A stretch of DNA of 64,000 nt. Origin: a virus (lineage: Duplodnaviria; Heunggongvirae; Uroviricota; Caudoviricetes). Under the pieces are notes generated by a model. It was given only the letters and a program-made list of their open reading frames with translations, searched no databases and had not been told where the DNA came from. Location: the IMG/VR virus record IMGVR_UViG_2861079508_000001; one strand, 5' to 3'. Shown here one piece after another: positions 7,257-22,270 of this stretch. Each line of letters begins with the position of its first letter. Positions within the stretch are counted from its first letter, which is position 1. The translations under genes were made by a program, and so were the position numbers.

Positions 7257-8024
7257 ATGGACGATTTATCGGTATACGCGAGATCATTGGATAAGGCTAA
7301 ATACTATGTTTACTGTCTCTATGATACAGAAGACAAGATGAAAAGACCGTTTTACATAGGAAAAGGCAAATCGACTCGTTGTCTCGATCACATCAAGTAT
7401 CCCGATGACTCTCCCAAATCCATGCGGATCAAAGAACTTTTGGCTAATAAAAAATTAGGCATAGATATACTTCGTCATGGTATGGATGAAACCACAGCCA
7501 AACTTGTTGAGGCGACATGCATCGACCTTATGGGGGTCGGAGAGCTTACGAATAAGGTACGAGGAAGTGGTTCCATGATGGGCAGAATATCACTGGACGC
7601 CTACCATCACTTAGTGCTGCAAGAGGAAACTGAAATTGCTCCTGAGCACGCCGGTCTTGCCTTCCTGCTAAACAGCACCTACAAGTCAGGAATGTCCGCT
7701 CTGGCATTATATGAGGCTACGCGTGGCGTATGGGCAAAGGTTCCAAGAGACGAGAATCTCAAATATGCCTACGCTACATATGGTGGGCTGATAATGGAAG
7801 TTTATCAGATTGAATGCTGGGTCAAAGCCGGTTCTCAGCAGTACTTTACAAGGGATATAGCTCTTGGCCCCGACACAAAACGTTATGAATTTGTTGGCAG
7901 AATAGCCGATGAGCATATTAGAAAACTGTATGTAGGCAAATTAATCAAGAAGCCACCAAGCTACGGTAGCCCTTTTGTGAAGGTTGGGGTGGTTAGGACT
8001 GAACATAGTGTTAGCGCGGCATAA
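7257..8024 (+). CDS. GIY-YIG family nuclease (possible homing endonuclease)
   Basis: N-terminal VYCLYD-x9-YIGKG-x5-R...H matches the GIY-x(9-11)-YIG motif; gene is inverted relative to all neighbours and preceded by a large non-coding region. Confidence 0.5.
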   Translation: MDDLSVYARSLDKAKYYVYCLYDTEDKMKRPFYIGKGKSTRCLDHIKYPDDSPKSMRIKELLANKKLGIDILRHGMDETTAKLVEATCIDLMGVGELTNKVRGSGSMMGRISLDAYHHLVLQEETEIAPEHAGLAFLLNSTYKSGMSALALYEATRGVWAKVPRDENLKYAYATYGGLIMEVYQIECWVKAGSQQYFTRDIALGPDTKRYEFVGRIADEHIRKLYVGKLIKKPPSYGSPFVKVGVVRTEHSVSAA

Positions 8025-8436: not shown

Positions 8437-9104
8437 TATTCTTCTTCCTCCAGACTCAACAGATAATCTACAAATTCTTCAAACTCGGCTTCCGCCTTTT
8501 TGTCGCGCTCGCTACCGGTCATTTCAAAGATAGAACGACCAGACTCTTCCGCATCATCATAGACGTTGCGGTTATATAGATTGACTGGCGCAGACTCGAT
8601 GCCAAACGTCTCAACAATCTCTTTAGCCGCCAGAATGCGAGACACTTGTGATGGCAAAGCCGGGCACTGGTTCATGACCGCGCGGACCTTCACTTTATCG
8701 TTTACATTACGAACATTGTCGATAATAGGATCGATGTCACGCAGAGATTTCAAATCACGACGCTTAGGACGAAGCGGGATAATGATAACGTCGGCCATCA
8801 GCATCGCTTGTCGCTGAATTTCGGAGTCAAAGCCACCAGCATCTACCACTACATACTCAGCTCTACCCTGAAGCGATTTTAGGTGCTTAATGATGTCATC
8901 CTGAACGTATGCAAAAGGAATCAGCTCAAGGTCTTCGTTCTGTCGACGGTCTTCACACCAGCTCGTTGTCGTGCGCTGAATATCTATATCGGTGATATAA
9001 ACCTTCTTCTTCTTTTTGACTTTCAGGCAAACGGCAATTTGCTGGGCAACGGTGGATTTGCCAGGCCCGCCCTTTGTGCCGCCAACCACAAAGATCTTGG
9101 TCAT
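8436..9104 (-). CDS. ParA/MinD-family partition ATPase
   Basis: Deviant Walker A GGTKGGPGKST at N-terminus; 222 aa. Confidence 0.7.
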   Translation of the reverse strand: MTKIFVVGGTKGGPGKSTVAQQIAVCLKVKKKKKVYITDIDIQRTTTSWCEDRRQNEDLELIPFAYVQDDIIKHLKSLQGRAEYVVVDAGGFDSEIQRQAMLMADVIIIPLRPKRRDLKSLRDIDPIIDNVRNVNDKVKVRAVMNQCPALPSQVSRILAAKEIVETFGIESAPVNLYNRNVYDDAEESGRSIFEMTGSERDKKAEAEFEEFVDYLLSLEEEE

Positions 9105-9138
9105 TGGAGAGTTCCCTTTGCGTATATAATTATCGTCT

Positions 9139-9155
9139 GAAACAACTTGTTTTCT
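9139..9155. promoter_or_regulatory. motif 1 operator-like palindrome (GAAACAACTTGTTTTCT)
   Basis: Upstream of parA, next to TATATAATTATCG. Confidence 0.5.
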
Positions 9156-9243
9156 TATATGTGATATAGCCTAAATGCCTACGGCTGTGGTGTAAAGGTT
9201 AAATGGTAGGTGCTGCCTTAGAATTTTTAGGCGAGAATCAATG

Positions 9244-9276
9244 GCTGTTAACAAAAAAGGCGACCAAAGTCGCCTG
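9244..9276 (-). terminator. rho-independent terminator after gene 9281..10033
   Basis: Minus-sense AGGCGAC-TTTG-GTCGCCT followed by TTTTTTGTT. Confidence 0.55.
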
Positions 9277-9280
9277 ATTT

Positions 9281-10033
9281 TTAATCTTTTAGGTATAAAC
9301 CTACTGGAGTTCTTGTTTTGCGGGAGATGATAAGTACGATAAATTTCTGAACGTTAACTTGCACTTTGTTTGGGAGCCAAGAGCTTAACTCTGCATCAAG
9401 CAACAATCCTCTGTTCCACGGCAAAAATCCGGTTTCTTTCCCCATCCCGTACTCGCCTAACACATCCTCGAACGTTTCTGTTTTGGCATTGTATATACGC
9501 ACATCGCCGGTTCGCATGAGAGGCCCTGCCCAGATCTTAGCACCAGGAATGGTTTGTGTATCGTCGCAGACTAAATGCTCATACCAATGAAGAAGAAAGA
9601 GATAGGTACGGTGACACAATCCTCGCTGACGACGCTCTCTGACAGTTTCGACACCGGCTACCTGGTAACATTCGATCTCATTACCGTCTTCAACAAAACT
9701 ATATTCACGCAGAGCTATCCTACCAGCGATCGTATTTTTGTTTTCGTCCAGAAGCCCGGACTGGAGCACCTCTTTGATAATCTCTTCTTCAGGGGCATCT
9801 TCATCCGCTCGATCTAAGATGAATTCGCTCAGGTCGCCTTGGTCGCGCGCACCTACAAGTTCCATAGAGACATACAGGCAAATGTCATCTTCTGGTTCAA
9901 TGATTTCAATTTCTGAGATTTTATAGAGGGAGGCTTCATTGATAAGAAAGCCAAAACGAACAACACGAGTCTCCCCTTTATGAGGAAACTCGCTTAGATC
10001 TTTTGAATATGCGCTATCTAGTGTAGGAGCCAT
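9281..10033 (-). CDS. hypothetical protein
   Basis: 250-aa ORF followed on the minus strand by a hairpin plus T-run. Confidence 0.45.
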   Translation of the reverse strand: MAPTLDSAYSKDLSEFPHKGETRVVRFGFLINEASLYKISEIEIIEPEDDICLYVSMELVGARDQGDLSEFILDRADEDAPEEEIIKEVLQSGLLDENKNTIAGRIALREYSFVEDGNEIECYQVAGVETVRERRQRGLCHRTYLFLLHWYEHLVCDDTQTIPGAKIWAGPLMRTGDVRIYNAKTETFEDVLGEYGMGKETGFLPWNRGLLLDAELSSWLPNKVQVNVQKFIVLIISRKTRTPVGLYLKD

Positions 10034-10625: not shown

Positions 10626-10862
10626 TCAGTTCAGGTGCCCCCACTCACACAGCCTTTCACCTATCGTATTGTGGATAAGCAACTGTCGCTCCGTTTCCTC
10701 AGTCATAAAATCCTCTCTACTCACATAAATAGGATTTGCAGCATCGCAGAATAGCACGCCTGGAGCCTGCGTCTTAATCACGCACCCATTTATCAAACAG
10801 CTCGCGATGAACACCAGAGGCATCTTTTTGCCGCACTTCATTAACCGTTTCATTTTTGACAT
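10626..10862 (-). CDS. candidate o-spanin (small outer-membrane lipoprotein), overlapped with i-spanin gene
   Basis: Internal start gives lipoprotein signal MSKMKRLMKCGKKMPLVFIAS|C (lipobox IASC); begins inside the upstream i-spanin ORF in another frame, as in Rz/Rz1-type pairs; start choice ambiguous. Confidence 0.3.
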   Translation of the reverse strand: MSKMKRLMKCGKKMPLVFIASCLINGCVIKTQAPGVLFCDAANPIYVSREDFMTEETERQLLIHNTIGERLCEWGHLN

Positions 10863-11025
10863 CCACTGTGCTTTGAAGTCGTTTTCTGTCTTCCTGTTTT
10901 GCCTTCTCTTCCATTGCTCGTCGCGCCGCATTTCCGCCCATCGTGTAAGCGCCGACAAGAACGAAAAGAACGGCAGCCAGCGTAATCAAAGCAACTTTTA
11001 GCTTTGTCATCAGGCTGCCTAGCAT
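10774..11025 (-). CDS. candidate i-spanin (N-terminal TM + periplasmic coiled coil)
   Basis: 83 aa with hydrophobic segment LKVALITLAAVLFVLVGAYT followed by charged helical region; located in lysis cluster. Confidence 0.45.
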   Translation of the reverse strand: MLGSLMTKLKVALITLAAVLFVLVGAYTMGGNAARRAMEEKAKQEDRKRLQSTVDVKNETVNEVRQKDASGVHRELFDKWVRD

Positions 11026-11026
11026 A

Positions 11027-11719
11027 TTAGACCATCCCTTTCTGGTGTTTTCTTACCTGCGACCAGGCAATGAATCCTGCCACAACAATAGTGGCAATAC
11101 CGAAGATGATGCGTACTGTATCCCCGCTAGAGATATGACCTTGTGCTTTATCCATAGCAGCGGAAACCTGCGGCATAACATCGGCAAGCTGCGCCAGACC
11201 AATACCTGCTGTGACAGTTGCGCCTGCGGTTTCTTTAGTTACAGGAACAGCCTTCACGGTTTTCACCGGCTTAACGACGCCGGCTCGACGCAGACCTTCC
11301 TCAATAACTTCTGCCGCATACCAGGTGTTCAGCGTTTTTAGTGGACCTCGACCATTCTCGTGGCGAATGATTGCCTCAACCAAAGGTCGAAGGATGTCGT
11401 AATCATGCAGATCGATGATCATGTCTGCGGTTACACCAACGGCTTTAGACACCTCATTAATGTAGGCGTCAGTGTTGTTTTCATTCGGCGGTGCCCAACG
11501 TTCAATAACTTCACGAATGGTATCGATACTTGAGCCGTCTTTTGCGCGACGTTTGTCGTGGTAGGTAATTAGAGTCACCGCCAGCGCACGAATCCCCCAA
11601 ACAGGGTCTTTAAACGTGCAAAAGCGCGGTTCGTCTGGATTCGCAACCAGACCTTGCCACGGTGATCCTTTATCAAGATTACCGGGGTTATTATTACGAA
11701 TGCCTCTCGGAGTCTTCAT
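11027..11719 (-). CDS. lysis-cluster protein with C-terminal membrane anchor (possible cell-wall hydrolase; family uncertain)
   Basis: Start set at second ATG preceded by AGGAGA; contains GIRNNNPGNL motif and C-terminal hydrophobic helix IIFGIATIVVAGFIAW; sits between holin-like and spanin-like genes. Confidence 0.4.
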   Translation of the reverse strand: MKTPRGIRNNNPGNLDKGSPWQGLVANPDEPRFCTFKDPVWGIRALAVTLITYHDKRRAKDGSSIDTIREVIERWAPPNENNTDAYINEVSKAVGVTADMIIDLHDYDILRPLVEAIIRHENGRGPLKTLNTWYAAEVIEEGLRRAGVVKPVKTVKAVPVTKETAGATVTAGIGLAQLADVMPQVSAAMDKAQGHISSGDTVRIIFGIATIVVAGFIAWSQVRKHQKGMV

Positions 11720-11732
11720 CCTTGATCTCCTG

Positions 11733-12068
11733 TTATTGCAGTCCATTTTTTACGCCATACGCGGCTAACCCCAAAAGCAGTGCAGTAATAATGAACGACG
11801 TTATTTTAGAAACAATGCCGCCAAAGAACCCACTGGAGATGGAATCTAACCGGTTAAGGAGTTTGTCCAGATTGGAGTGTTGAATACTATGTTGCGCCGG
11901 GGTCATATCACCAAAGTAGGTTTTCAGCTGATCATTGACCTCCTGGCCAATTTCTTCACGTAGCTCTTTACCTAATTTGCCAACAACCTCCCGAGCAACG
12001 ATCGCGGCAATACGCTCAACTTGCTCTGTTGTAACGCTCGCCATCTCGTTCGACATGTTTTCCTCCAT
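11733..12068 (-). CDS. holin-like small membrane protein
   Basis: 111 aa, C-terminal TM segment ITSFIITALLLGLAAYGV; first gene of lysis cluster. Confidence 0.4.
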   Translation of the reverse strand: MEENMSNEMASVTTEQVERIAAIVAREVVGKLGKELREEIGQEVNDQLKTYFGDMTPAQHSIQHSNLDKLLNRLDSISSGFFGGIVSKITSFIITALLLGLAAYGVKNGLQ

Positions 12069-12117
12069 GAAAAGTCAAATCGGGATGGCGGATTTATATC
12101 ACATTTCACCCTTTTAT

Positions 12118-12143
12118 TGTAGGTGTGTACCTACCTATCATTC
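12118..12143 (-). promoter_or_regulatory. motif 2 element
   Basis: GTGTACCTACCTATCATTC upstream of holin-like gene. Confidence 0.45.
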
Positions 12144-12371
12144 AGCATTGCAACGGACTGATGAGAAAGCACCTACTCCTACCCATCGCCAGTTATAGAT
12201 ACTACCCGCTTTGTATAAGGTATAGTCGTTCACTTTTTTAACAGCATATATGGGTATGACTGTCTCCTGTCCACCAATGATAGCCTCACCGTAACATATA
12301 GGTGTCGGCAATTTCTGGCAGCCAGTAAGAGAGAGAACAACAGCTATTATTAGAAATAATCTTTTCATCAT
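12138..12371 (-). CDS. small lipoprotein (candidate superinfection-exclusion/receptor-blocking lipoprotein)
   Basis: 77 aa with signal peptide and lipobox LTGC; located immediately downstream of tail-fibre-associated genes, the position occupied by Llp/Cor-type lipoproteins in other siphoviruses. Confidence 0.45.
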   Translation of the reverse strand: MMKRLFLIIAVVLSLTGCQKLPTPICYGEAIIGGQETVIPIYAVKKVNDYTLYKAGSIYNWRWVGVGAFSSVRCNAE

Positions 12372-12378
12372 TTACTCA

Positions 12379-12987
12379 TCAGTTATACAGATTTCTATTT
12401 ATTACCGGTACTCTGCCATTTACGCTAAAACTATGGCCGCCATTAAGTTGGTTTACGAATATCGAGCTAACAGTATTTCCATATGCCGCATATCCATAAA
12501 CCATTGTCATGGCTCCGCCCGGTACTGGAACAGCGAACACATTCGCATATGTTGGGATTATCGCTGGTGGGTAATCAAAAACATGCCCTCCAGAGCTGTT
12601 CCACTCCGTATTATTAAGAAAGGTAAATGAAAGTGGGATATTTGCCGTATTATAGATTTCCTCCCCTTGTGCATTGAAAAAACTCATGCCCCAAGTTTCT
12701 TTTTTGGCTATACCTTTCGAAAATACGTATATCGTGGCACTAGAGTCGCTACCCTGACCTCCGAAACTGTAAATCACCTGGTTGTTACGCACTATTCTGT
12801 TGGCTATTAATGAAACAGCTTTCGAATAGGCAACAAAAATCATCGGTGAACGATCTGGAGATATTTGGGTGTTAAACTCTGTCCCGCCGGACAAAGAAAC
12901 AACCTGCTTTCTCTGAAAAACGATAGGAGACAAAGAAGGAGACATCCAGACCTTCCCGTCAGATCGATATATCTTGCTTCCGTACAT
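12379..12987 (-). CDS. hypothetical tail-fibre-associated protein
   Basis: 202 aa; start overlaps stop of upstream gene (TAATG), suggesting co-translation with 12987..13241. Confidence 0.45.
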   Translation of the reverse strand: MYGSKIYRSDGKVWMSPSLSPIVFQRKQVVSLSGGTEFNTQISPDRSPMIFVAYSKAVSLIANRIVRNNQVIYSFGGQGSDSSATIYVFSKGIAKKETWGMSFFNAQGEEIYNTANIPLSFTFLNNTEWNSSGGHVFDYPPAIIPTYANVFAVPVPGGAMTMVYGYAAYGNTVSSIFVNQLNGGHSFSVNGRVPVINRNLYN

Positions 12988-13241
12988 TATTTTTGAAAAA
13001 CCAATATGTTTAAATTACCACTAGCTCCAGACCACGAAATGGTATTTCCAGAAACCGTAAGACTTGTGTATTTTCCATTGGTTACGTCCATTATGTAATA
13101 GTCGATTCCCAATCCCGCCTCAACCTCATATGTTCTACTTCCTGAACCAGAGGGAGTAAAATAATCGAGGTAATAAACAGGGGCCAACGCATCGACCATC
13201 TCCTGTCTTGATGGCGACCAAACCTGTGCACCATAGCTCAT
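12987..13241 (-). CDS. hypothetical tail-fibre-associated protein
   Basis: 84 aa; immediately downstream of long tail fibre gene. Confidence 0.4.
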   Translation of the reverse strand: MSYGAQVWSPSRQEMVDALAPVYYLDYFTPSGSGSRTYEVEAGLGIDYYIMDVTNGKYTSLTVSGNTISWSGASGNLNILVFQK

Positions 13242-13301
13242 AAATATATCCTTATACTTTTAAGCAGGGGCTGGTTTAGTTCCAGCCCCGATTGAAGTTG
13301 T

Positions 13302-16300
13302 TTATTCTTTAGGTGAATTTAACTTCGTTTCAAGCTCCTCAACCCTTTTGGTCAATTGCTGAATATGATGAATGAGTGGTACAACCAAACGCTCATACAT
13401 CACTCCTTCAGCGACCATACCATTTGAGGAAATATCTTCTGGAGAATCATTATTTGTTGGTTCACGCCAATGGACATATTGCGGGGCAATCTCACCAACC
13501 TCTTCAGCAATAAGGCCGTAATACCCCCAATCCTTTCGGTCACCTCGACAAATTGAACGATACCAAACAGGTCTTAATGACAAAAGTTCATCAGCATATC
13601 GATCTTGTAATGTTTCAATATCCTTTTTATAGCGCCTTGAAGAGGTTGAACGCCAAACTGTATTGATACCTGGGTTTGGATCAATGTACATATTGGCACC
13701 GCTAGTAGTTGTGCCAATATCCCATATAGCAAACCCTCCACTACCGCCTGATTTGACAACCAGTGTTTCAGCAATAATATCCAGGTTGCCACTATAGCCT
13801 GTCAGTGATGATCTGCTTGCATAGGAACTTAGAAGGTTTGTTACCTCTGTTTTCGTGTAAGCATTAAGGTTAGCCGCAGTCAAAGTTATATCGGCAGAGC
13901 CATCAAACGCCACACCAGCAATTTTCCTTGCTGTCTGCAATTTTGTGGCGGTTGCGGCATTACCAGTAGTGTTCTGATTACCAGTTGTATTCACACCAGG
14001 GATTGAATCCTTAGCGGTATATACCTGCGCCCACGCTGACCATGCCGCACCTGTGTTATCTCTTCGTGAGCGAATGAAAACTGGCGCATGTGCACCGCTC
14101 GTACCACTCCAGCCAATAAGCAACTCTCCCTCACCAGCAGCACTCGCACCTTTCATGTGCAATACGTTGCCATACATGGTCGGGTAGCTATTGTTGTACG
14201 CCTCGTACATTTGAATGCCAGCAGTGCCTTGAGTAGAGCCGCTTAACGCCGTAACTCGGCCACGAGATACCAATGTATTAATGTTGATATCGCCTGAGCC
14301 ATCAAACTTAACACCATTGATGTTTCTCGCTGTTTGCAACTTCGTAGCTGTTGAAGCATTACCGTTCAAACTACCATTTACGCCACCAGTCACATTTAGT
14401 CCATTACCAATTGATACAGCACCGCTGGTATTATTAATTGTAATAGGTCGCAAACCGTTCCATGAACCTAATGTGTCTCCTGATGCTGTTAGCATGAAAT
14501 ATGTGTTCGATCCATCATTACGGATAAAGAACCCAAAGCTACCGTAAGCAATGCGGAAACCATTTGCATATTTTGAAATGATCTCGCCAGAAGATGTCAA
14601 ACCTCCAGATAATGTACCACCGGTAAGAGGTAATGCACCGACATCAGAGGCTGTTGGTTTGTTTTTCGTGTTATATACTCTTCGCCATCCCGGAGAATAA
14701 TCTGTGCCATTAAATACATAGATAAACTCCGCATTAGTGAGAGCACCAGAGACACTCGTCGTTGTGGCCGTTGTTATACGGATCGTATAATTGTTTGAGC
14801 TACTACCGTTATTAAATACCTCTATAACAGCTCCTGCCAATGGAATAACGCCACAACCAGTTTCACTATTTGGTATGGTTGCACTATTGGCATAGGCCCA
14901 CGCACATCGAGCAATCCATGACTTTGTGTTAAATGCTCCATTATTTTGCAATAACGTCACTAACTGTGCTGTTGTTATTGCTCCGCCATTACTTCCTGTA
15001 GTTAACCAACCAGTAGGAGATGCCGGGCAACCTATATTTGCTGGCGACAAGGAAATATTTGCCGAGCCGTCAAACGACACCCCATTGATAGTACGCGCAG
15101 TCTGCAACTTCGTAGCAGTAGCCGCGTTGCCCGTTGTATTCTGATTACCAGTCGTATTAACACCTGGCAAATTAATATTCGCAGTACCATCAAAGCTCAC
15201 GCCGCCGATAGTTCTTGCCGTCTGAAGTTTTGTAGCAGTTGCAGCATTACCAGTGGTGTTCTGATTACCCGTAGTATTTACACCTGGAAGGTTGATATTT
15301 GCAGAACCGTCGAAACCAACTCCACCGATAGATCTTGCCGTCTGCAATTTCGTTGCTGTACTTGCATTACCATTTAATGTTCCGGTGATCCCACCAGTAA
15401 CAGACAACGGACCTGAAACTGTTCCTCCGGTTGTTGGCAGTGCTCCAATATCTAACGGCGTCGGTTTCTGATGTGTGCTATACATCGTATAAACAACACC
15501 ATCGGTAACGCTGGAAGGCTTACTAGCTGAATATGTTGGCGATGTATAAATAGAAACTGTCGCATTTGCAGTACAATCCCAATGGATATTTACACGAGTC
15601 GCATAATTGCCAATCTCAACGTAAATATCATATGTATCGCCGGATGTGTTGATCCAGGCGAAATTCGTTAATCCGACAGCTGTACGCTTCCACAAAGCAC
15701 CTGTAATCCCTTTGGGGTTTCCATTGCCTGCTCGTAGAACCAGTTCTGAAATGCCTGCCTGATGTGGGGAGCCGACGTTGTAACCAGCGCCACCAATCAA
15801 TGCGATGTAAACGATGGAACTCGCTTGTGGCATGGTAACCGTAGCCAGTTTGAACCACCCTGCCCCGCCAGAGAAAGACATCGTTACTGAATTTAAAGTA
15901 CCAATATCTTTCGGCGTTAATGTGATATCCGCAGTCAGTGCTTTACCGTTAACTTTTCGGTTAGATGGCACCCTGCTATTCGCATTGTCATTGGCTGCTT
16001 TAACTGCTTTTGGCGTTGCGGCCAGCGATTCACTGGTGCTGTCGACAGCACTGCTAAGTTTCACAACACCTTTAGTTGTAAGGCTTGCGTCTTCCATCGC
16101 AACTGCACCGGCAATCTCTTCAGCACGATCAGCAGCAGCTTCCGCACGGGTCGCAGCGGATTCAGCAGCAGTTTTGCTCTGAGATGCTGCCGTCGCACTG
16201 CCTGCCGCCTCTGTTGCTTTCGTGGATGCCGTCGTGGCGCTGCCCTTCGCTGCTGACGCCTGTCTGGTCGCCTCATCTTTTGAAGCAGACGCAGATGATG

Positions 16301-17459
16301 CCGATGACGCTGCCGAACTGGCGGACGATGCGGCTGCCGTTTTTGAGGATTCTGCACGGGTTTCCGACGCTTTCGCGTTCGTTTCGGATGTCTTCGCTGC
16401 GGAAGCAGACCTCGCTGCTGCGCTGGCCTGTTCAGTGGCTTCGCCAGCCTTCGTTGTGGCTGTTGAAGCAGACGATGCGGCACTTTCTGCCGATTTTCCG
16501 GCGGCTGTGGCACTGGCTGAGGCCTGCCCGGCACTTGTTGACGCGGCACTGGCAGACGACGCAGCCGCTGTTTTTGAGCCTGCTGCAGCCGAGGCGCTCT
16601 GTCCCGCTGCCGTTTCAGAAGACTTGGCGTTCGTCTCGGACGTTTTTGCCGCCTTCGCGGAATTTCCTGCCGCCGTTGCCGAGGAAGCTGCGCTACTGGC
16701 GCTCGAGGATGCGTTCGTTTCTGATGATTTCGCTGCCTCTTTTGAGGCCGCCGCATCCCGGGCTGAGGTGGCAGCTTCTGACGCTTTCGTGGTCGCGGTG
16801 GATGCAGAAGTGGCTGCTGATTGTTGTGACGCTGCGGCATTCGTTTCAGATTTTTTCGCAGCAGTTGCACTCGCACTTGCGGCACTTTGTGAGGATGCCG
16901 CAGCGGATGCACTTTGAGACGCTTGAGAGGCTTTTTCTCCAGCGGTATTGGCGCTTTCTGCTGCTGCGGCAGCACTGGCCGCCGCCTCACGAGCTTTGTC
17001 GCCAGCAGCATCAATCGCGTCAGTGTTATTTTTATACCACTCAACGTTTTCGTTGTGCTCGTTGACGATCTGCATTAGCGGCTTAACGGTTACTTCTGAA
17101 CCGTCTTCACGCTCGATTGTCACCTCATCCAGAGCAGTCAACCAACTGCGCATGGACTTGGAATCAGCCGACATACGCGACATTAGTGCTGTAAAGCGCG
17201 CGCTAAACTGTGTTAAGTCGCCTTCATAGGTCGTAATGATTCGGCACGGAACTTCAGACTGAGTTTCGCCGGTATAAGGTTCTGAGAGAACAATGTTCGT
17301 ATCACTGGTTACGCGCTTGATCTCATACAGCTTATTGTCGGGGCCAATGACGATCATCCCCGGCAACACACCATTAGCTGTTACGTTCCAGGCTGTCCCT
17401 GCCCCAACCAGAGTATTGCTGCCCTGTGTAAATGTGATAGTACCTTCCCTGTACCACAT
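13302..17459 (-). CDS. long tail fibre protein with C-terminal intramolecular chaperone (peptidase S74-type) domain
   Basis: 1385 aa; ~280-aa Ala/Ser/Thr-rich low-complexity region; tandem phage-fibre repeats (ASTATKLQTAR.IGGV.FDGSANINLPGVNTTGNQNTT x3-4); C-terminal YGLIAEEVGEIAPQYV-type chaperone motif. Confidence 0.75.
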   Translation of the reverse strand: MWYREGTITFTQGSNTLVGAGTAWNVTANGVLPGMIVIGPDNKLYEIKRVTSDTNIVLSEPYTGETQSEVPCRIITTYEGDLTQFSARFTALMSRMSADSKSMRSWLTALDEVTIEREDGSEVTVKPLMQIVNEHNENVEWYKNNTDAIDAAGDKAREAAASAAAAAESANTAGEKASQASQSASAAASSQSAASASATAAKKSETNAAASQQSAATSASTATTKASEAATSARDAAASKEAAKSSETNASSSASSAASSATAAGNSAKAAKTSETNAKSSETAAGQSASAAAGSKTAAASSASAASTSAGQASASATAAGKSAESAASSASTATTKAGEATEQASAAARSASAAKTSETNAKASETRAESSKTAAASSASSAASSASSASASKDEATRQASAAKGSATTASTKATEAAGSATAASQSKTAAESAATRAEAAADRAEEIAGAVAMEDASLTTKGVVKLSSAVDSTSESLAATPKAVKAANDNANSRVPSNRKVNGKALTADITLTPKDIGTLNSVTMSFSGGAGWFKLATVTMPQASSIVYIALIGGAGYNVGSPHQAGISELVLRAGNGNPKGITGALWKRTAVGLTNFAWINTSGDTYDIYVEIGNYATRVNIHWDCTANATVSIYTSPTYSASKPSSVTDGVVYTMYSTHQKPTPLDIGALPTTGGTVSGPLSVTGGITGTLNGNASTATKLQTARSIGGVGFDGSANINLPGVNTTGNQNTTGNAATATKLQTARTIGGVSFDGTANINLPGVNTTGNQNTTGNAATATKLQTARTINGVSFDGSANISLSPANIGCPASPTGWLTTGSNGGAITTAQLVTLLQNNGAFNTKSWIARCAWAYANSATIPNSETGCGVIPLAGAVIEVFNNGSSSNNYTIRITTATTTSVSGALTNAEFIYVFNGTDYSPGWRRVYNTKNKPTASDVGALPLTGGTLSGGLTSSGEIISKYANGFRIAYGSFGFFIRNDGSNTYFMLTASGDTLGSWNGLRPITINNTSGAVSIGNGLNVTGGVNGSLNGNASTATKLQTARNINGVKFDGSGDININTLVSRGRVTALSGSTQGTAGIQMYEAYNNSYPTMYGNVLHMKGASAAGEGELLIGWSGTSGAHAPVFIRSRRDNTGAAWSAWAQVYTAKDSIPGVNTTGNQNTTGNAATATKLQTARKIAGVAFDGSADITLTAANLNAYTKTEVTNLLSSYASRSSLTGYSGNLDIIAETLVVKSGGSGGFAIWDIGTTTSGANMYIDPNPGINTVWRSTSSRRYKKDIETLQDRYADELLSLRPVWYRSICRGDRKDWGYYGLIAEEVGEIAPQYVHWREPTNNDSPEDISSNGMVAEGVMYERLVVPLIHHIQQLTKRVEELETKLNSPKE
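15050..15420 (-). repeat. tandem ~110-bp coding repeats inside tail fibre gene
   Basis: Encode the repeated ATKLQTAR.IGGV.FDG fibre motif. Confidence 0.6.
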
Positions 17460-17551: not shown

Positions 17552-20500
17552 TTACAGAAGGCCAATTCTTACTCGTAGGACGTTGTTATCGTCATAAACG
17601 TCAATCCGCTGACCATTTATGACCAGTCGCCCATTACCCCCGCTATTACCGTTGATCTCAAGCGTTCCATTTTTGCCGAACCGCCATCCAGATCTACCGC
17701 TAACAAAATTGGTAGATTGCAGATCGCCTACTTTTGCATTGGTGATTGTGCCATCCTTGATATACGCACCATTCATATAGGCGATACTGTTTTCGATAAC
17801 AAATGGCGTGGTGATCTTCCCGTTAACAGAGTTGACCAAACCAAACCTGTCAGCCTGCACCAAAAACTGAGAAAGGCCAGTGGTGTCGATACCAAGCGCA
17901 ATACCAGCAACATACTTCTGCCCTCCGCTCGTTGAAGTTTCCATTTTCAACGTCCACGCGGTTGACACTTTTTTGTTGGTATCAGCAATAGCTGTTGCCT
18001 GCTGTTGAATTGTCGCGGTATTTCCATCCACCTCTGCTTTCAGAGTATCGATTCGCCCACTCAGAGCATTATCTGCCTGCGTTCTCGCTGTCGTTTCAGT
18101 TGTTACCGCCGCGGAAATGTTGGCTGCCGTTTGAGACTCTAAGTTTGTGATTTGAGTCGCCAATGCAGCATCTTGCTCTGTACGCGTTTTCGTTTCGGTT
18201 GCTACAGCCGCTTTAATATCCTCTTTGTATTGAGAGGTCAGCTTGGTGATCTGAGACGACAACGCCGAGTCAGCATCAGTTCGAGCCTGCGTTTCAACTG
18301 CAACGGCCGCACTAATATCTTTCGCTGTCTGTGCTTTTAAACTTGAAACCTCTTTTGTTAAAGCGGTATCACCATCAGCACGAGCCGTTGTTTCTCTGGC
18401 AAGAGATGCCTCGAGATCATTAGCTTTTGCTGTAAGAGACGAAATCTGAGTGGACAATGCACTATCGGCATCAGTCCTTGCCTTTGTCTCTACAGCAACC
18501 GCTGCGGCAATATCAGTTCCGGTTTGTGCTCGCAGGCTGTTAATTTCTCGTGAGAGCGCCTGGTCAGCACTTGCTCTGGCCTCCTGCTCCTGAGTGATGG
18601 CAGCGGATATATCACCGTCAACCTTTGACTGAAGCTGGTTTATTTGTTTGGCTAACGCAGAGTCCCCGCTTGCTCGGGCCTCCTGCTCACTACGTATTGC
18701 AGCAGAAATATCATCATCAACCTTTGCCTGAAGTTGGGTGATCTGGCTTGCCAGAGCCGAATCTTCCGTTGCTCGGGCTTCTTGCTCTTCCTTAATAGCT
18801 GCGACGATATCGTTGCTTACTTTCGACTCAAGCTGAGTGATCTGTGTCGTCAGAGCTTCATCGGCAGATGTGCGAGCCTCCTGCTCTGTACTAATCGCCG
18901 CGCTGATATCTCCTTCAAACTTAGATTGCAGCTGAGTGACACGCTTTGCCAACGCTTCATCGCCATCGGCACGAGCGGTGGACTCTTCCAGAATACTGGC
19001 CTTAATGTCTTCGCCAATTTCTACGCGAATTTCCTCAACCTTCGTGGCCATTGCAGACATATCATCAGCAAAGGTTTTCTGTGTTGTTGCGATCTTCGCG
19101 TTATTGACCATCTGCTTGTGCTGGTCTTCATCTTGACGAAGAGCTAGGTCAATATTTGTTTTGGCTAACGCCTCAATGTTCGTAGTCAGTTCTGCACTGG
19201 CACGATCGACCTCTGCAACCGTCTTTTTCATTTCTTCAACGGCAGCGGAGCTTTCCTCTACCGTTGACTGCAACACTTCCAGTTGTTTAGCGTTTGCAGC
19301 ATCGCCTTCAACACGAGCCTCGCTTTCCTTAGCAATAAGAGCCGCCGCTTCATCTCTTGCAGCCTTTATTGCCTCGACTGTATTAGCGAGAGCTTTATCG
19401 TGTTCAGATACGGTGTTTTCGATTTCAACAATTGCAGCATCAGTAGCATCAATTTTTTCAAACGCTTCATTGACCTTGTCGATCGTTGCCGAAACCTCAC
19501 CTTTAAGCTCGGTTTGTGCGTTCTCCAAAGCATCGCTACGCTCGTTGAATTTTATTTCAAAACCCGCGAGGTTATCGCTGAACTGCTTATCTAATTCAGC
19601 TATATCTTCCTTAACGTCGTTTACCGACCCCTCCAAAGATTCGACGCTCTGGTTGATATGCTCATTTAACTCGTCAACTGCTTCTTGAGAGGCTTTGCTG
19701 TTGATGTCCTCAAGCAGAGCCTGACCAAGCTCGGAAGATGTAATTTTGCCAGCCAGGAACGACAGTACATCGCGAGTTGTCGCCTCTGTACCCAAGTTTG
19801 AGTTCGGAGGGCTTAACATACCTCGCTTGTTCGATGCTCGAACCCAGTAATACCACGTTTCGCTATCCCCAAGACCAGCATGTGTAAAGGTGGTGCTTGC
19901 AGACTCTGCGATCAGTTTCGCCGTATCCAGATTGTTGGTCTGGGATGCGTAAACATTAATGTGATCAAGGTCTACCGAATCTGGATTAACCCAATTCAGT
20001 ATCACATTACGATAGTCTCCAACGGCCGTTAATGACGTTGGTGCATCCGGCGGTGTCATTGTGCCCAGCACCTGATAAACGGTACTGATAATTTCTGTTT
20101 TTTTACCGTTGAATGAAACCGCATACAGTTGGAAGTCGTAGCGTCCATTCTCCGCGACATTAACGATTTCGTATTGTTCTTCGGTTACACGCGCCGATTG
20201 CCAGTTCGATACATTGTTTTCATCAGAACGTCGCCAACTGATCCAATACTCTGGAGATTTCCCTTCCCATGTTGCAGTCAGTTTTACTGACAGGTTGCCC
20301 GGGCTTGAGAGGTAAGTCCCTTCAGTGATTTGCAAATTAGACGGCTTGGAGTAAGTCGGGTCCAATACCGTCGTATTCTGCGGGATAAGCGTTGCACCAT
20401 TGTCGATCGCCTCATATTTAGACGGATTGTTTTCAACAGCGGTGATGTCAAAGCTACCCGACGTTTCCCCCTGAGCGATGTTAACGATGCGAACGCGCAT

Positions 20501-22270
20501 AGGTTCGAGATCTGGTTCTGTAATTGTCCAGACACCGTTCAAAACAGGCGTTTCCGCTGACGACAGAGCTTTTGAAAACGTAACCTTTGTTATGTTTTCG
20601 CCAGTTTCAAGAACATCGCGCTCAACGATTTTGCCTTCCTGATTCAATATCCGAATAAAGCTGCCGCTTTTAGCTAACGACACAGGCGCATCGAGAGTGA
20701 TGCTGTTTTTGGTAAACTCCACAATTCGACCGGAGTTACGTTTACCTGCACGATATTTGTTCTGAATCAGAACGGTTTCACCGGGCATCAGAAATGAGGC
20801 GTCTAAGCCGGCAGTAAATGTAATTACATCCGACTCCATTCTGGCGGTATACAAAAGCCACAAACCAACTCGGTGAGCCTGGCCTCGGCTTGTACATCCA
20901 AATGCTACGACTTCTGTTTTACGCTCACCATAACGGCGCATTGCGTCCTGATCTTCAACGTACTCGATGTTTTGCTTATAACCGTCCTCCTTGTTGTTGT
21001 AGGTTACGAGCGCAACGGATGGGCGATCTTTACGCGCAGAACCTTTATAGGTAAACAGTCCATCTTTGACGTTGGAGTTGGTAAACATCATTACTGGATC
21101 TGATGGGCTATCCTGCATGATGTTAACCATGCCACCAGCCCAAAACACCATGCCGCGGAATGCACCGGCAATATCCTGAATTAATCGGTATGCGTCTTGT
21201 CGACTGGTGATCTGCGTATTGATTGCAAAGCGTTTCTCTTTACCCCCAAAGCCATCATCGACCTCTTCGTCACAATATCGACCAATCTGGTAGAGCTGGC
21301 CGAGGTCAATCATGGATTCCGACACAAATTGCCCAAGACCATACCGAGTATTGGTAAGCAAATCGTAGAGAATCCACGCAGGGTTTGAAGAAGACAACAG
21401 CTTAAAAGTACCGTCCCATACGCCGACATAAGTATTGGTGTATTCGTTGTCTCGGATTTTGATACCGCGCACCAAATACGAACGGGAAGGCATTGTGCTA
21501 CCAAACTGCTCTGAATTGACCTTCAAGCCAACAAGAGCAGAGTTAGGGTAGTTCATTGGCGTGTCGACAATCTCACCTATGGAATCAACCCATGTGTCGT
21601 TGTAGAGGTACTGGCTACTGTTATCATCTGTAAGACGAATCACCCTAACCTTGTATGCACGACCAGGCTTAGGTAGTTTCAGCTCATAGCTACGGTAATA
21701 CACGCCGGTTTTCTTTGCCGTTAGCGTGATATCAACGCTTTTCTCACCTTCTGCCACTACATCAGAAAATGTTGCGTCTCCGTTGGCGATCTGGAATTTG
21801 TACTTCACCGTAGTGCCATTTGTATCGCCAGAGCTTTTATCAACGCTACGTAAAGAGGGGAATTTCATGATGACACGAACGCGATCAGCTTCATCGTTAT
21901 CGATTGAAACCGTAACGTCGTGTGTTTTTTTAAGCTGAATATTTACGGACTTAGGCGTTTCGACAAAATCAAAACCAGCCATTGGCGTCTGGTCTTGTGA
22001 GCCGTCACGAAAATCCCATGTAATACCGCTGAAGTTGGAAGAGCCATCTTCATTCAAGATCGGTAAATCGTCGATGAAGATCGACTTTGCGCCATTTACC
22101 AGGCCACCGATAACCCCCTCGCCAAGAAGGTCGAGGATGGCTGCCATAGCACGAGAATTGACAGTATCATCAGCTTCAACCGGGGTACGGCTGGAGCTTT
22201 TACTTTTCTTGCCACCAGCACCGGCAATAAGAAGCGGTAATTTTTTCTTCTTGAACTGTTCCATGTCCAA
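17552..22270 (-). CDS. tail tip / host-specificity protein (lambda gpJ-like) with tandem coiled-coil repeat insertion
   Basis: 1572 aa; AFGCTSRGQAHRVGLWLL and KYVAGIALG...SQFLVQADRF match conserved gpJ blocks; ~12 tandem ~30-aa repeats (D.SAA...EQEARA..D.AL..QI..L..KV). Confidence 0.75.
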   Translation of the reverse strand: MDMEQFKKKKLPLLIAGAGGKKSKSSSRTPVEADDTVNSRAMAAILDLLGEGVIGGLVNGAKSIFIDDLPILNEDGSSNFSGITWDFRDGSQDQTPMAGFDFVETPKSVNIQLKKTHDVTVSIDNDEADRVRVIMKFPSLRSVDKSSGDTNGTTVKYKFQIANGDATFSDVVAEGEKSVDITLTAKKTGVYYRSYELKLPKPGRAYKVRVIRLTDDNSSQYLYNDTWVDSIGEIVDTPMNYPNSALVGLKVNSEQFGSTMPSRSYLVRGIKIRDNEYTNTYVGVWDGTFKLLSSSNPAWILYDLLTNTRYGLGQFVSESMIDLGQLYQIGRYCDEEVDDGFGGKEKRFAINTQITSRQDAYRLIQDIAGAFRGMVFWAGGMVNIMQDSPSDPVMMFTNSNVKDGLFTYKGSARKDRPSVALVTYNNKEDGYKQNIEYVEDQDAMRRYGERKTEVVAFGCTSRGQAHRVGLWLLYTARMESDVITFTAGLDASFLMPGETVLIQNKYRAGKRNSGRIVEFTKNSITLDAPVSLAKSGSFIRILNQEGKIVERDVLETGENITKVTFSKALSSAETPVLNGVWTITEPDLEPMRVRIVNIAQGETSGSFDITAVENNPSKYEAIDNGATLIPQNTTVLDPTYSKPSNLQITEGTYLSSPGNLSVKLTATWEGKSPEYWISWRRSDENNVSNWQSARVTEEQYEIVNVAENGRYDFQLYAVSFNGKKTEIISTVYQVLGTMTPPDAPTSLTAVGDYRNVILNWVNPDSVDLDHINVYASQTNNLDTAKLIAESASTTFTHAGLGDSETWYYWVRASNKRGMLSPPNSNLGTEATTRDVLSFLAGKITSSELGQALLEDINSKASQEAVDELNEHINQSVESLEGSVNDVKEDIAELDKQFSDNLAGFEIKFNERSDALENAQTELKGEVSATIDKVNEAFEKIDATDAAIVEIENTVSEHDKALANTVEAIKAARDEAAALIAKESEARVEGDAANAKQLEVLQSTVEESSAAVEEMKKTVAEVDRASAELTTNIEALAKTNIDLALRQDEDQHKQMVNNAKIATTQKTFADDMSAMATKVEEIRVEIGEDIKASILEESTARADGDEALAKRVTQLQSKFEGDISAAISTEQEARTSADEALTTQITQLESKVSNDIVAAIKEEQEARATEDSALASQITQLQAKVDDDISAAIRSEQEARASGDSALAKQINQLQSKVDGDISAAITQEQEARASADQALSREINSLRAQTGTDIAAAVAVETKARTDADSALSTQISSLTAKANDLEASLARETTARADGDTALTKEVSSLKAQTAKDISAAVAVETQARTDADSALSSQITKLTSQYKEDIKAAVATETKTRTEQDAALATQITNLESQTAANISAAVTTETTARTQADNALSGRIDTLKAEVDGNTATIQQQATAIADTNKKVSTAWTLKMETSTSGGQKYVAGIALGIDTTGLSQFLVQADRFGLVNSVNGKITTPFVIENSIAYMNGAYIKDGTITNAKVGDLQSTNFVSGRSGWRFGKNGTLEINGNSGGNGRLVINGQRIDVYDDNNVLRVRIGLL
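18000..18960 (-). repeat. tandem ~90-bp coding repeats inside gpJ-like gene
   Basis: Encode ~12 copies of a 30-aa coiled-coil unit. Confidence 0.6.

Follow-up and report, generated by a model that had tools for sequence, protein, structure and literature searches.

Three small genes at 12138–13241 of the window, the whole 64,000-nt stretch of tailed-phage DNA that was analysed (IMG/VR record IMGVR_UViG_2861079508_000001), are likely to constitute the host-recognition and exclusion unit, or 'Cor cassette', of an SSU5-like siphovirus phage-plasmid, in which the exclusion lipoprotein Cor is probably directed against FhuA. The window is 100% identical to the E. coli plasmid pSJC33-2, a 113-kb member of the SSU5 group of phage-plasmids from a chicken isolate, over both the cassette (12100–13300) and the lysis region (10700–12100).

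The first-pass annotation had described a 77-aa lipoprotein with an LTGC lipobox that follows two co-translated small genes downstream of a long tail fibre gene, and all three minus-strand open reading frames (ORFs) were confirmed at the positions it gave, together with the lipobox, the overlap of the two small genes and the fibre gene ahead of them (Table 1). The cassette lies between the lateral fibre gene and the lysis genes, in the order J-like tip, 1385-aa lateral fibre, 84-aa gene, 202-aa gene, cor and holin-like gene. The tail genes upstream encode the tape measure protein and M/L/K/I homologues in addition to the J-like tip and the lateral fibre, and the holin-like gene downstream is followed by the endolysin gene, an Rz/Rz1 spanin pair and then a ParA partition gene. 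The stop codon of the 84-aa gene (TAA) and the ATG of the 202-aa gene overlap by one base (TAATG), a junction that fits translational coupling and recurs in SSU5 and a third variant (L026). A gap of 7 nt separates the 202-aa gene from cor. The strong matches of the three products to protein families (Table 1) and the conservation of the block at 95–100% nucleotide identity in 67 complete E. coli genomes indicate that these ORFs are real genes rather than chance ones. Both PGAP and the SSU5 record place the start of the 202-aa gene 14 codons later, at an internal Met (188 aa); the long form is backed by N-terminal conservation across all homologues and by its overlap with the upstream stop codon.

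Table 1 Features of the Cor cassette and of the tail genes upstream of it.
Feature	Coordinates	Strand	Description
J-like tail tip gene	17552..22270	minus	1572 aa; Pfam PF09327 (residues 1420-1554) and NCBIfam lambda_TipJ
Lateral tail fibre gene	13302..17459	minus	1385 aa; Pfam Gp34_trimer and Peptidase_S74 chaperone domains
GC-rich hairpin	13267..13289	minus	8-bp stem GGGGCUGG/CCAGCCCC, 7-nt loop, without a U-tract after it; read from the sequence
84-aa gene	13241..12987	minus	soluble protein, partner of the 202-aa protein; PHROG 557 (E = 1.3e-24)
202-aa gene	12987..12379	minus	soluble all-beta protein, probable tail-tip receptor-binding protein; PHROG 425 (E = 4.5e-49)
cor	12371..12138	minus	77-aa outer-membrane lipoprotein precursor, mature form 60 aa; Cor superinfection-exclusion family, PHROG 1119 (E = 9.2e-31)

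Family matches and a predicted structure support the identification of the 77-aa lipoprotein as a Cor-family exclusion protein, most likely Llp-like in its action. Its N-terminus, MMKRLFLIIAVVLSLTGC, has a basic start, then a hydrophobic core and an L-T-G-C lipobox whose cysteine is Cys18, so that cleavage is expected between MMKRLFLIIAVVLSLTG and this cysteine. The residue at +2 is Gln, from which sorting to the outer membrane is predicted. The mature protein contains two further cysteines, and the match to Pfam LPAM_1 is weak (E = 0.009, below the cut-off of that model). The protein scores 81.2 bits against the NCBIfam equivalog NF047972, 'phage exclusion lipoprotein Cor' (cut-off 31 bits), with residues 2–75 aligned to profile positions 1–77 of 78, and PHROG 1119 carries the name 'Cor superinfection exclusion protein'. 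A tblastn search returned 220 phage records, many of them annotated Cor, with best identities of 61% to the Cor-like protein of SSU5, 57% to those of Stx phage 86 and its relatives, and 47% to Cor of HK022 and many lambdoid phages, in the case of HK022 over the full length. In an alignment of 83 Cor members, Cys18, Cys26, Gly56 and Cys74 are invariant and Gly34, Ala55, Val64 and Phe69 nearly so, and all eight are kept here; the conserved core of the family thus comprises two further cysteines, an Ala-Gly pair and an aromatic-rich strand at the C-terminus. Searches of a large protein collection gave 4 matches with the single sequence as query and 225 with a profile of eight Cor proteins. The Cor proteins of HK022, N15, phi80, mEp167 and T1 resemble this one in size (75–78 aa), in the lipobox and in two further conserved cysteines, and it shares the AGxxxNWRWV motif with the HK022/N15 branch.

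Kinship with both the Cor and the Llp families had been raised in the first-pass annotation; it held for Cor in sequence and for Llp in predicted fold, not in sequence. An AlphaFold2 model built from the family alignment (pLDDT 89) had T5 Llp (PDB 8A60, 7QJF), in complex with FhuA, as its best PDB match and adopts the Llp fold, with 15% identity in the structural alignment, whereas a phmmer search of Cor against all PDB sequences gave no Llp match at E ≤ 10. PDB sequence searches with all three cassette proteins returned nothing meaningful. According to the literature, including the KanT1 paper, Cor and Llp share a fold and Cor functionally inactivates FhuA; Llp is described as acting from the periplasmic face of FhuA. 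An identical protein is already present in RefSeq as 'phage exclusion lipoprotein Cor' (WP_048948313.1), with the gene named cor by PGAP. The core claim is therefore not new, contrary to what the first-pass annotation implied, and the identification given here mainly confirms an existing annotation.

The two neighbours of Cor are probable receptor-binding tail proteins, as judged from their homologues and gene context. Both align over their full length with homologues in T1, N15, HK022 and BASEL phages; the 84-aa protein is 69% identical to SSU5_023, 35–37% identical to its Bas04/Bas06 homologues and about 26% identical to FhuA-type homologues. The pair occurs in the same order as in the window, also overlapping, after the J gene of HK022, N15, T1, Bas05 and Bas07, and follows a protein with a Phage_Tail_Tip domain in T1, N15, HK022 and Stx prophages. 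In BASEL phages the alleles of the pair track the receptor. The locus has been called 'Cor cassette' (KanT1 paper) and 'bona fide RBP locus' (Maffei 2021), in agreement with the earlier suggestion that the lipoprotein stands beside receptor-binding genes.

The layout in the window differs from that of these better-known loci in several respects. While the lambdoid and T1-like cassettes directly follow J, the window cassette follows the lateral fibre gene and directly precedes the holin gene; the 'bona fide RBP locus' was defined as lying immediately downstream of the gpJ homologue, and here, as in SSU5, the fibre gene intervenes. The gap upstream of cor is 7 nt, compared with roughly 110 nt in HK022 and N15. 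In T5, the llp gene adjoins a single large RBP gene, pb5, unlike the two small partners of the window. The closest counterpart is the orthologous unit SSU5_023–025 of the Salmonella phage-plasmid SSU5, which is annotated Cor-like, occupies the same place between fibre module and holin gene and is 68.5% identical to the window cassette at the nucleotide level. Unlike the window, SSU5 has an extra gp38-like adhesin gene between fibre and cassette, and its fibre tip is different.

Trees of the three proteins and their counterparts from phages of known terminal receptor, with receptor assignments taken from the S5 table of Maffei 2021 and from receptor statements in the literature, indicate by descent a link to FhuA for Cor but not for its partners. 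Cor nests in a clade of FhuA-dependent phages, where HK022/N15 form its sister group and T1, Bas05 and Bas07 lie further out, and identity falls from HK022 (47%) to N15 (42%) and T1 (30%). From this tree position and the literature, FhuA is most probably the target of Cor. The pair lies outside the tight FhuA cluster (20–27% identity, E = 1e-3 to 1e-5) and groups instead with BtuB-type (Bas04/Bas06) and Stx-phage pairs (24–37% identity, E down to 2e-19), which makes the two neighbours a different allele group from those of FhuA-dependent phages. The combination of a cognate FhuA-binding RBP with a FhuA-blocking Cor is therefore not what these clusters predict. A more far-reaching reading, which we judge less likely than not, is that SSU5-like elements hard-wire a FhuA-type Cor, through translational coupling, to a pair of BtuB/Stx lineage, either as a second solution to FhuA binding or with Cor as a non-cognate host-defence protein, and that PHROG 425 is structurally akin to the Oekolampad RBP. 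If the former were true, the pair would be a previously unrecognised second way of binding FhuA. If the latter were true, a plasmid-borne cor would guard the host against unrelated FhuA-dependent phages and colicins, with the element itself entering via another receptor.

Rather unlikely in our estimate, though the strongest of the competing explanations, is this non-cognate arrangement, in which Cor blocks FhuA while the phage-plasmid uses a different terminal receptor through the pair or the fibres. Cor would then serve mainly as a defence against T1, T5, phi80, many lambdoid phages, colicin M or microcin J25, rather than against self-superinfection. The incongruent phylogeny argues for it, with Cor in the FhuA-type clade and the pair among BtuB- and Stx-type alleles. 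The closest Cor outside the SSU5 group (57%; Stx phage 86 and many prophages) stands apart from the pair, after a gp38-like adhesin, and SSU5 has the same fibre-tip and adhesin module as Stx phage 86 (58% and 50% identity, respectively). In addition, the LPS core is the only receptor reported for SSU5, and according to a secondary citation it is bound by the gp38-like adhesin gp22. Against this arrangement, each of the three SSU5-like variants has the three genes contiguous, tightly packed and co-diverging, a pattern that usually marks a cognate RBP and exclusion locus and favours a functional unit. Identities for the small, mid-sized and Cor proteins are 69, 75 and 58% between the window and SSU5, 80, 92 and 79% between SSU5 and L026, and 65, 75 and 60% for the third pairing of variants. 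The small and mid-sized genes overlap, and the spacing between the mid-sized gene and cor ranges from an overlap in L026 to an 11-nt gap in SSU5. The clade to which the window pair belongs is, moreover, mixed in receptor, which leaves room for a distinct FhuA-binding allele.

A Cor fold turned against another TonB-dependent transporter, for instance BtuB, that is recognised by the adjacent pair is a further explanation, and we consider it improbable. Cor/Llp-like lipoproteins do accompany the BtuB- and YncD-specific loci of other siphoviruses, and the nearest relatives of the window pair are BtuB-type pairs (E = 2e-19 and 1e-8). However, beyond the signal peptide the mature Cor has no similarity to the BtuB-type (Bas04/Bas06) or YncD-type (Bas10) lipoproteins, and it is nearer to Cor of HK022 and N15 than to that of T1, all three of these phages being FhuA-dependent.

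The PHROG labels of the partners, 'outer membrane protein' for PHROG 557 (84 aa) and 'membrane associated protein' for PHROG 425 (202 aa), would suggest an envelope location, and in the KanT1 paper these names, together with the linkage to cor, led to the proposal that the proteins of the T1/KanT1 locus are non-virion helpers of exclusion. The dispensability of the cassette in relatives with the same J protein is compatible with that proposal, which we nevertheless hold to be very improbable for the window pair. Neither protein was found to have a signal peptide, lipobox, cysteine or membrane-spanning segment (maximum 19-residue hydropathy of 0.54 and 1.24), and the membrane-related names are for this reason misleading. 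In T1, Bas05 and Bas07 the pair is co-oriented, and transcribed, with J and the tail genes, and cor is encoded on the other strand. The pair of Stx phage 86 and many E. coli prophages follows a 422-aa protein with the same C-terminal Phage_Tail_Tip domain as J and occurs without an adjacent cor. These two arrangements favour a receptor-binding role in the virion over a helper role in exclusion. The probability that the lipoprotein is instead an o-spanin or similar member of the lysis module is close to negligible: although a gap of 69 nt separates cor from the holin-like gene downstream and its product, like Rz1, is an outer-membrane lipoprotein, a spanin identity was rejected since a complete and separate Rz/Rz1 pair is present at 10626–11025 (PHROG 1026 and PHROG 1275), the match to Cor is strong and none to spanins was found, and the same lysis genes occur without cor in Cyrano and other relatives.

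For the preferred reading, a cassette that couples host recognition with Cor-mediated exclusion, we infer the following course of events, timing of expression included. The soluble 84-aa and 202-aa virion proteins would most likely fit onto the C-terminal tip of J, which is conserved, and once in place would bind the terminal outer-membrane protein receptor. In the manner of T5 Llp, Cor would bind a TonB-dependent transporter, most probably FhuA, from the periplasmic side and keep it in a form unusable for phage receptor-binding proteins. Cells that carry or replicate the element would then cease to adsorb phages of that receptor, and progeny would not be wasted on cell debris.

A third pointer to a receptor-binding role in the virion, to be taken with caution, comes from the predicted structure of the 202-aa protein, a model of medium confidence (pLDDT 68, pTM 0.73) for which a single method indicates fold-level similarity to the solved Oekolampad RBP. 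Foldseek gave no match to this model at E < 0.1, and comparison of the 202-aa family with the Oekolampad RBP by hhalign gave a probability of 3%, which is not significant. The small-siphovirus loci that combine an RBP with an exclusion lipoprotein (Maffei 2021) include Rtp44/Rtp45 as well as the Oekolampad RBP and its SE protein. The Oekolampad locus has a single 321-aa RBP, an unrelated lipoprotein and LptD as its target, and its likeness to the window is confined to this fold level. Kinship between PHROG 425 and the Oekolampad RBP would, if true, settle the role of the two Cor-adjacent genes. The mismatch between Cor type and partner type and this link to a solved receptor-binding protein are both small leads on the pairing and reshuffling of genes for receptor binding and receptor blocking. 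At 12945–12987 and 13199–13241, both small proteins start with M-x-Y/F-G followed by a short strand and a Gly, and they do so in every allele type; this shared N-terminal motif suggests paralogous docking strands.

The last 140 aa of J are 95–99% identical in all four SSU5-like elements compared, whether or not the cassette is present. Among T1-like phages, the J tips of Bas07 (FhuA) and Bas06 (BtuB) are likewise nearly identical despite their different pair types. Near-invariant J tips under differing pairs fit a conserved socket for interchangeable receptor-binding proteins, and the two small proteins presumably dock on the C-terminal Phage_Tail_Tip domain of J. Co-variation of the J tip with the presence or allele of the pair was considered and rejected, as J tips follow phage lineage.

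The SSU5-like lysis module was found in 237 of 5426 complete E. coli genomes (about 4%), always on plasmids, and 67 of these 237 plasmids (about 28%) carry the cassette, which is an accessory element. A distant blastn search for diverged cassette alleles in E. coli recovered no genomes beyond these 67, and all the matches were at least 95% identical. In one plasmid (NZ_CP145681.1, H171, from E. coli S1-NGR-02-A) the cassette match is in two pieces, the first of which covers 56% of the query, which may reflect an interruption of the cassette such as an insertion. Elsewhere the slot between fibre and holin is empty or is occupied by a gp38-like 'receptor-recognizing protein', a tail fibre assembly gene or unrelated small ORFs, and in a metagenomic variant two gp38-like adhesin genes flank the cassette.

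Comparison with Cyrano located the boundaries of the exchanged segment. Nucleotide homology runs from 22398 to 14278, covering J and the first ~1060 fibre codons, then breaks off and is restored at 12139, one base past the cor stop, so that window positions 12139–14278 stand in the place of 8692–9657 of the Cyrano locus (L005). The fibre tip (the C-terminal ~325 codons) and the cassette have therefore been exchanged together relative to Cyrano. The J protein of Cyrano is 97.5% identical to that of the window, yet the corresponding locus of Cyrano has no cassette; the lineage can therefore do without it. No cassette homologues were found in the cassette-less relatives searched (Cyrano 17–35 kb, PhiR41_1 50–100 kb and four E. 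coli plasmid loci). SSU5 (L006 4995–10464) and the short-tailed Stx2 phage 86 (L008 3334–6216) have in common a module made up of Cor and of the fibre tip and gp38-like adhesin mentioned above, and in SSU5 the two small proteins lie between adhesin and Cor; given this common module, the present branch of Cor may have travelled with the gp38-like adhesin. The cassette represents a ready-made, exchangeable module of host range and exclusion. On SSU5-like phage-plasmids, which are roughly 110 kb in size, Cor may render its carriers resistant to FhuA-dependent therapeutic phages, and also to antimicrobials that depend on FhuA, among them colicin M and albomycin.

For lambdoid cor genes a moron promoter of their own has been proposed; the 7 nt ahead of cor in the window are too few to hold one, and cor is therefore probably co-transcribed with its partners. 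A consensus scan found 2 promoter-like sites compared with 5.1 expected by shuffling, none of them above chance, and 1 terminator-like site compared with 1.8 expected. The 60-nt gap between fibre gene and cassette has a predicted folding energy of −18.4 kcal/mol (RNAfold), and the hairpin within it was not called a terminator by the consensus scan. On the minus strand of the gap between cor and the holin-like gene (12069–12137), an extended −10-like element, TGATATAAA, was seen by eye and not called by the scan; it is a possible lysis-gene promoter, since Cyrano has the same sequence upstream of its holin gene.

Some further features of the window were recorded. The lateral fibre contains long Ala/Ser-rich SETNA-like repeats at roughly residues 150–470, a region in which long ORFs also arise spuriously in the other frames of either strand (16061–17065). 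Its plasmid counterpart, identical in the stretches compared, is an incomplete pseudogene according to PGAP; the frame is intact in the window. The endolysin (11027–11746, minus strand; PHROG 873, transglycosylase-like) has a hydrophobic segment at its end, IIFGIATIVVAGFIAWSQV, a C-terminal membrane anchor that is unusual for an endolysin. Between the replication and partition genes lies a gene for a LEM-3-like GIY-YIG nuclease (7257–8024), one of the few plus-strand genes in an otherwise minus-strand stretch.
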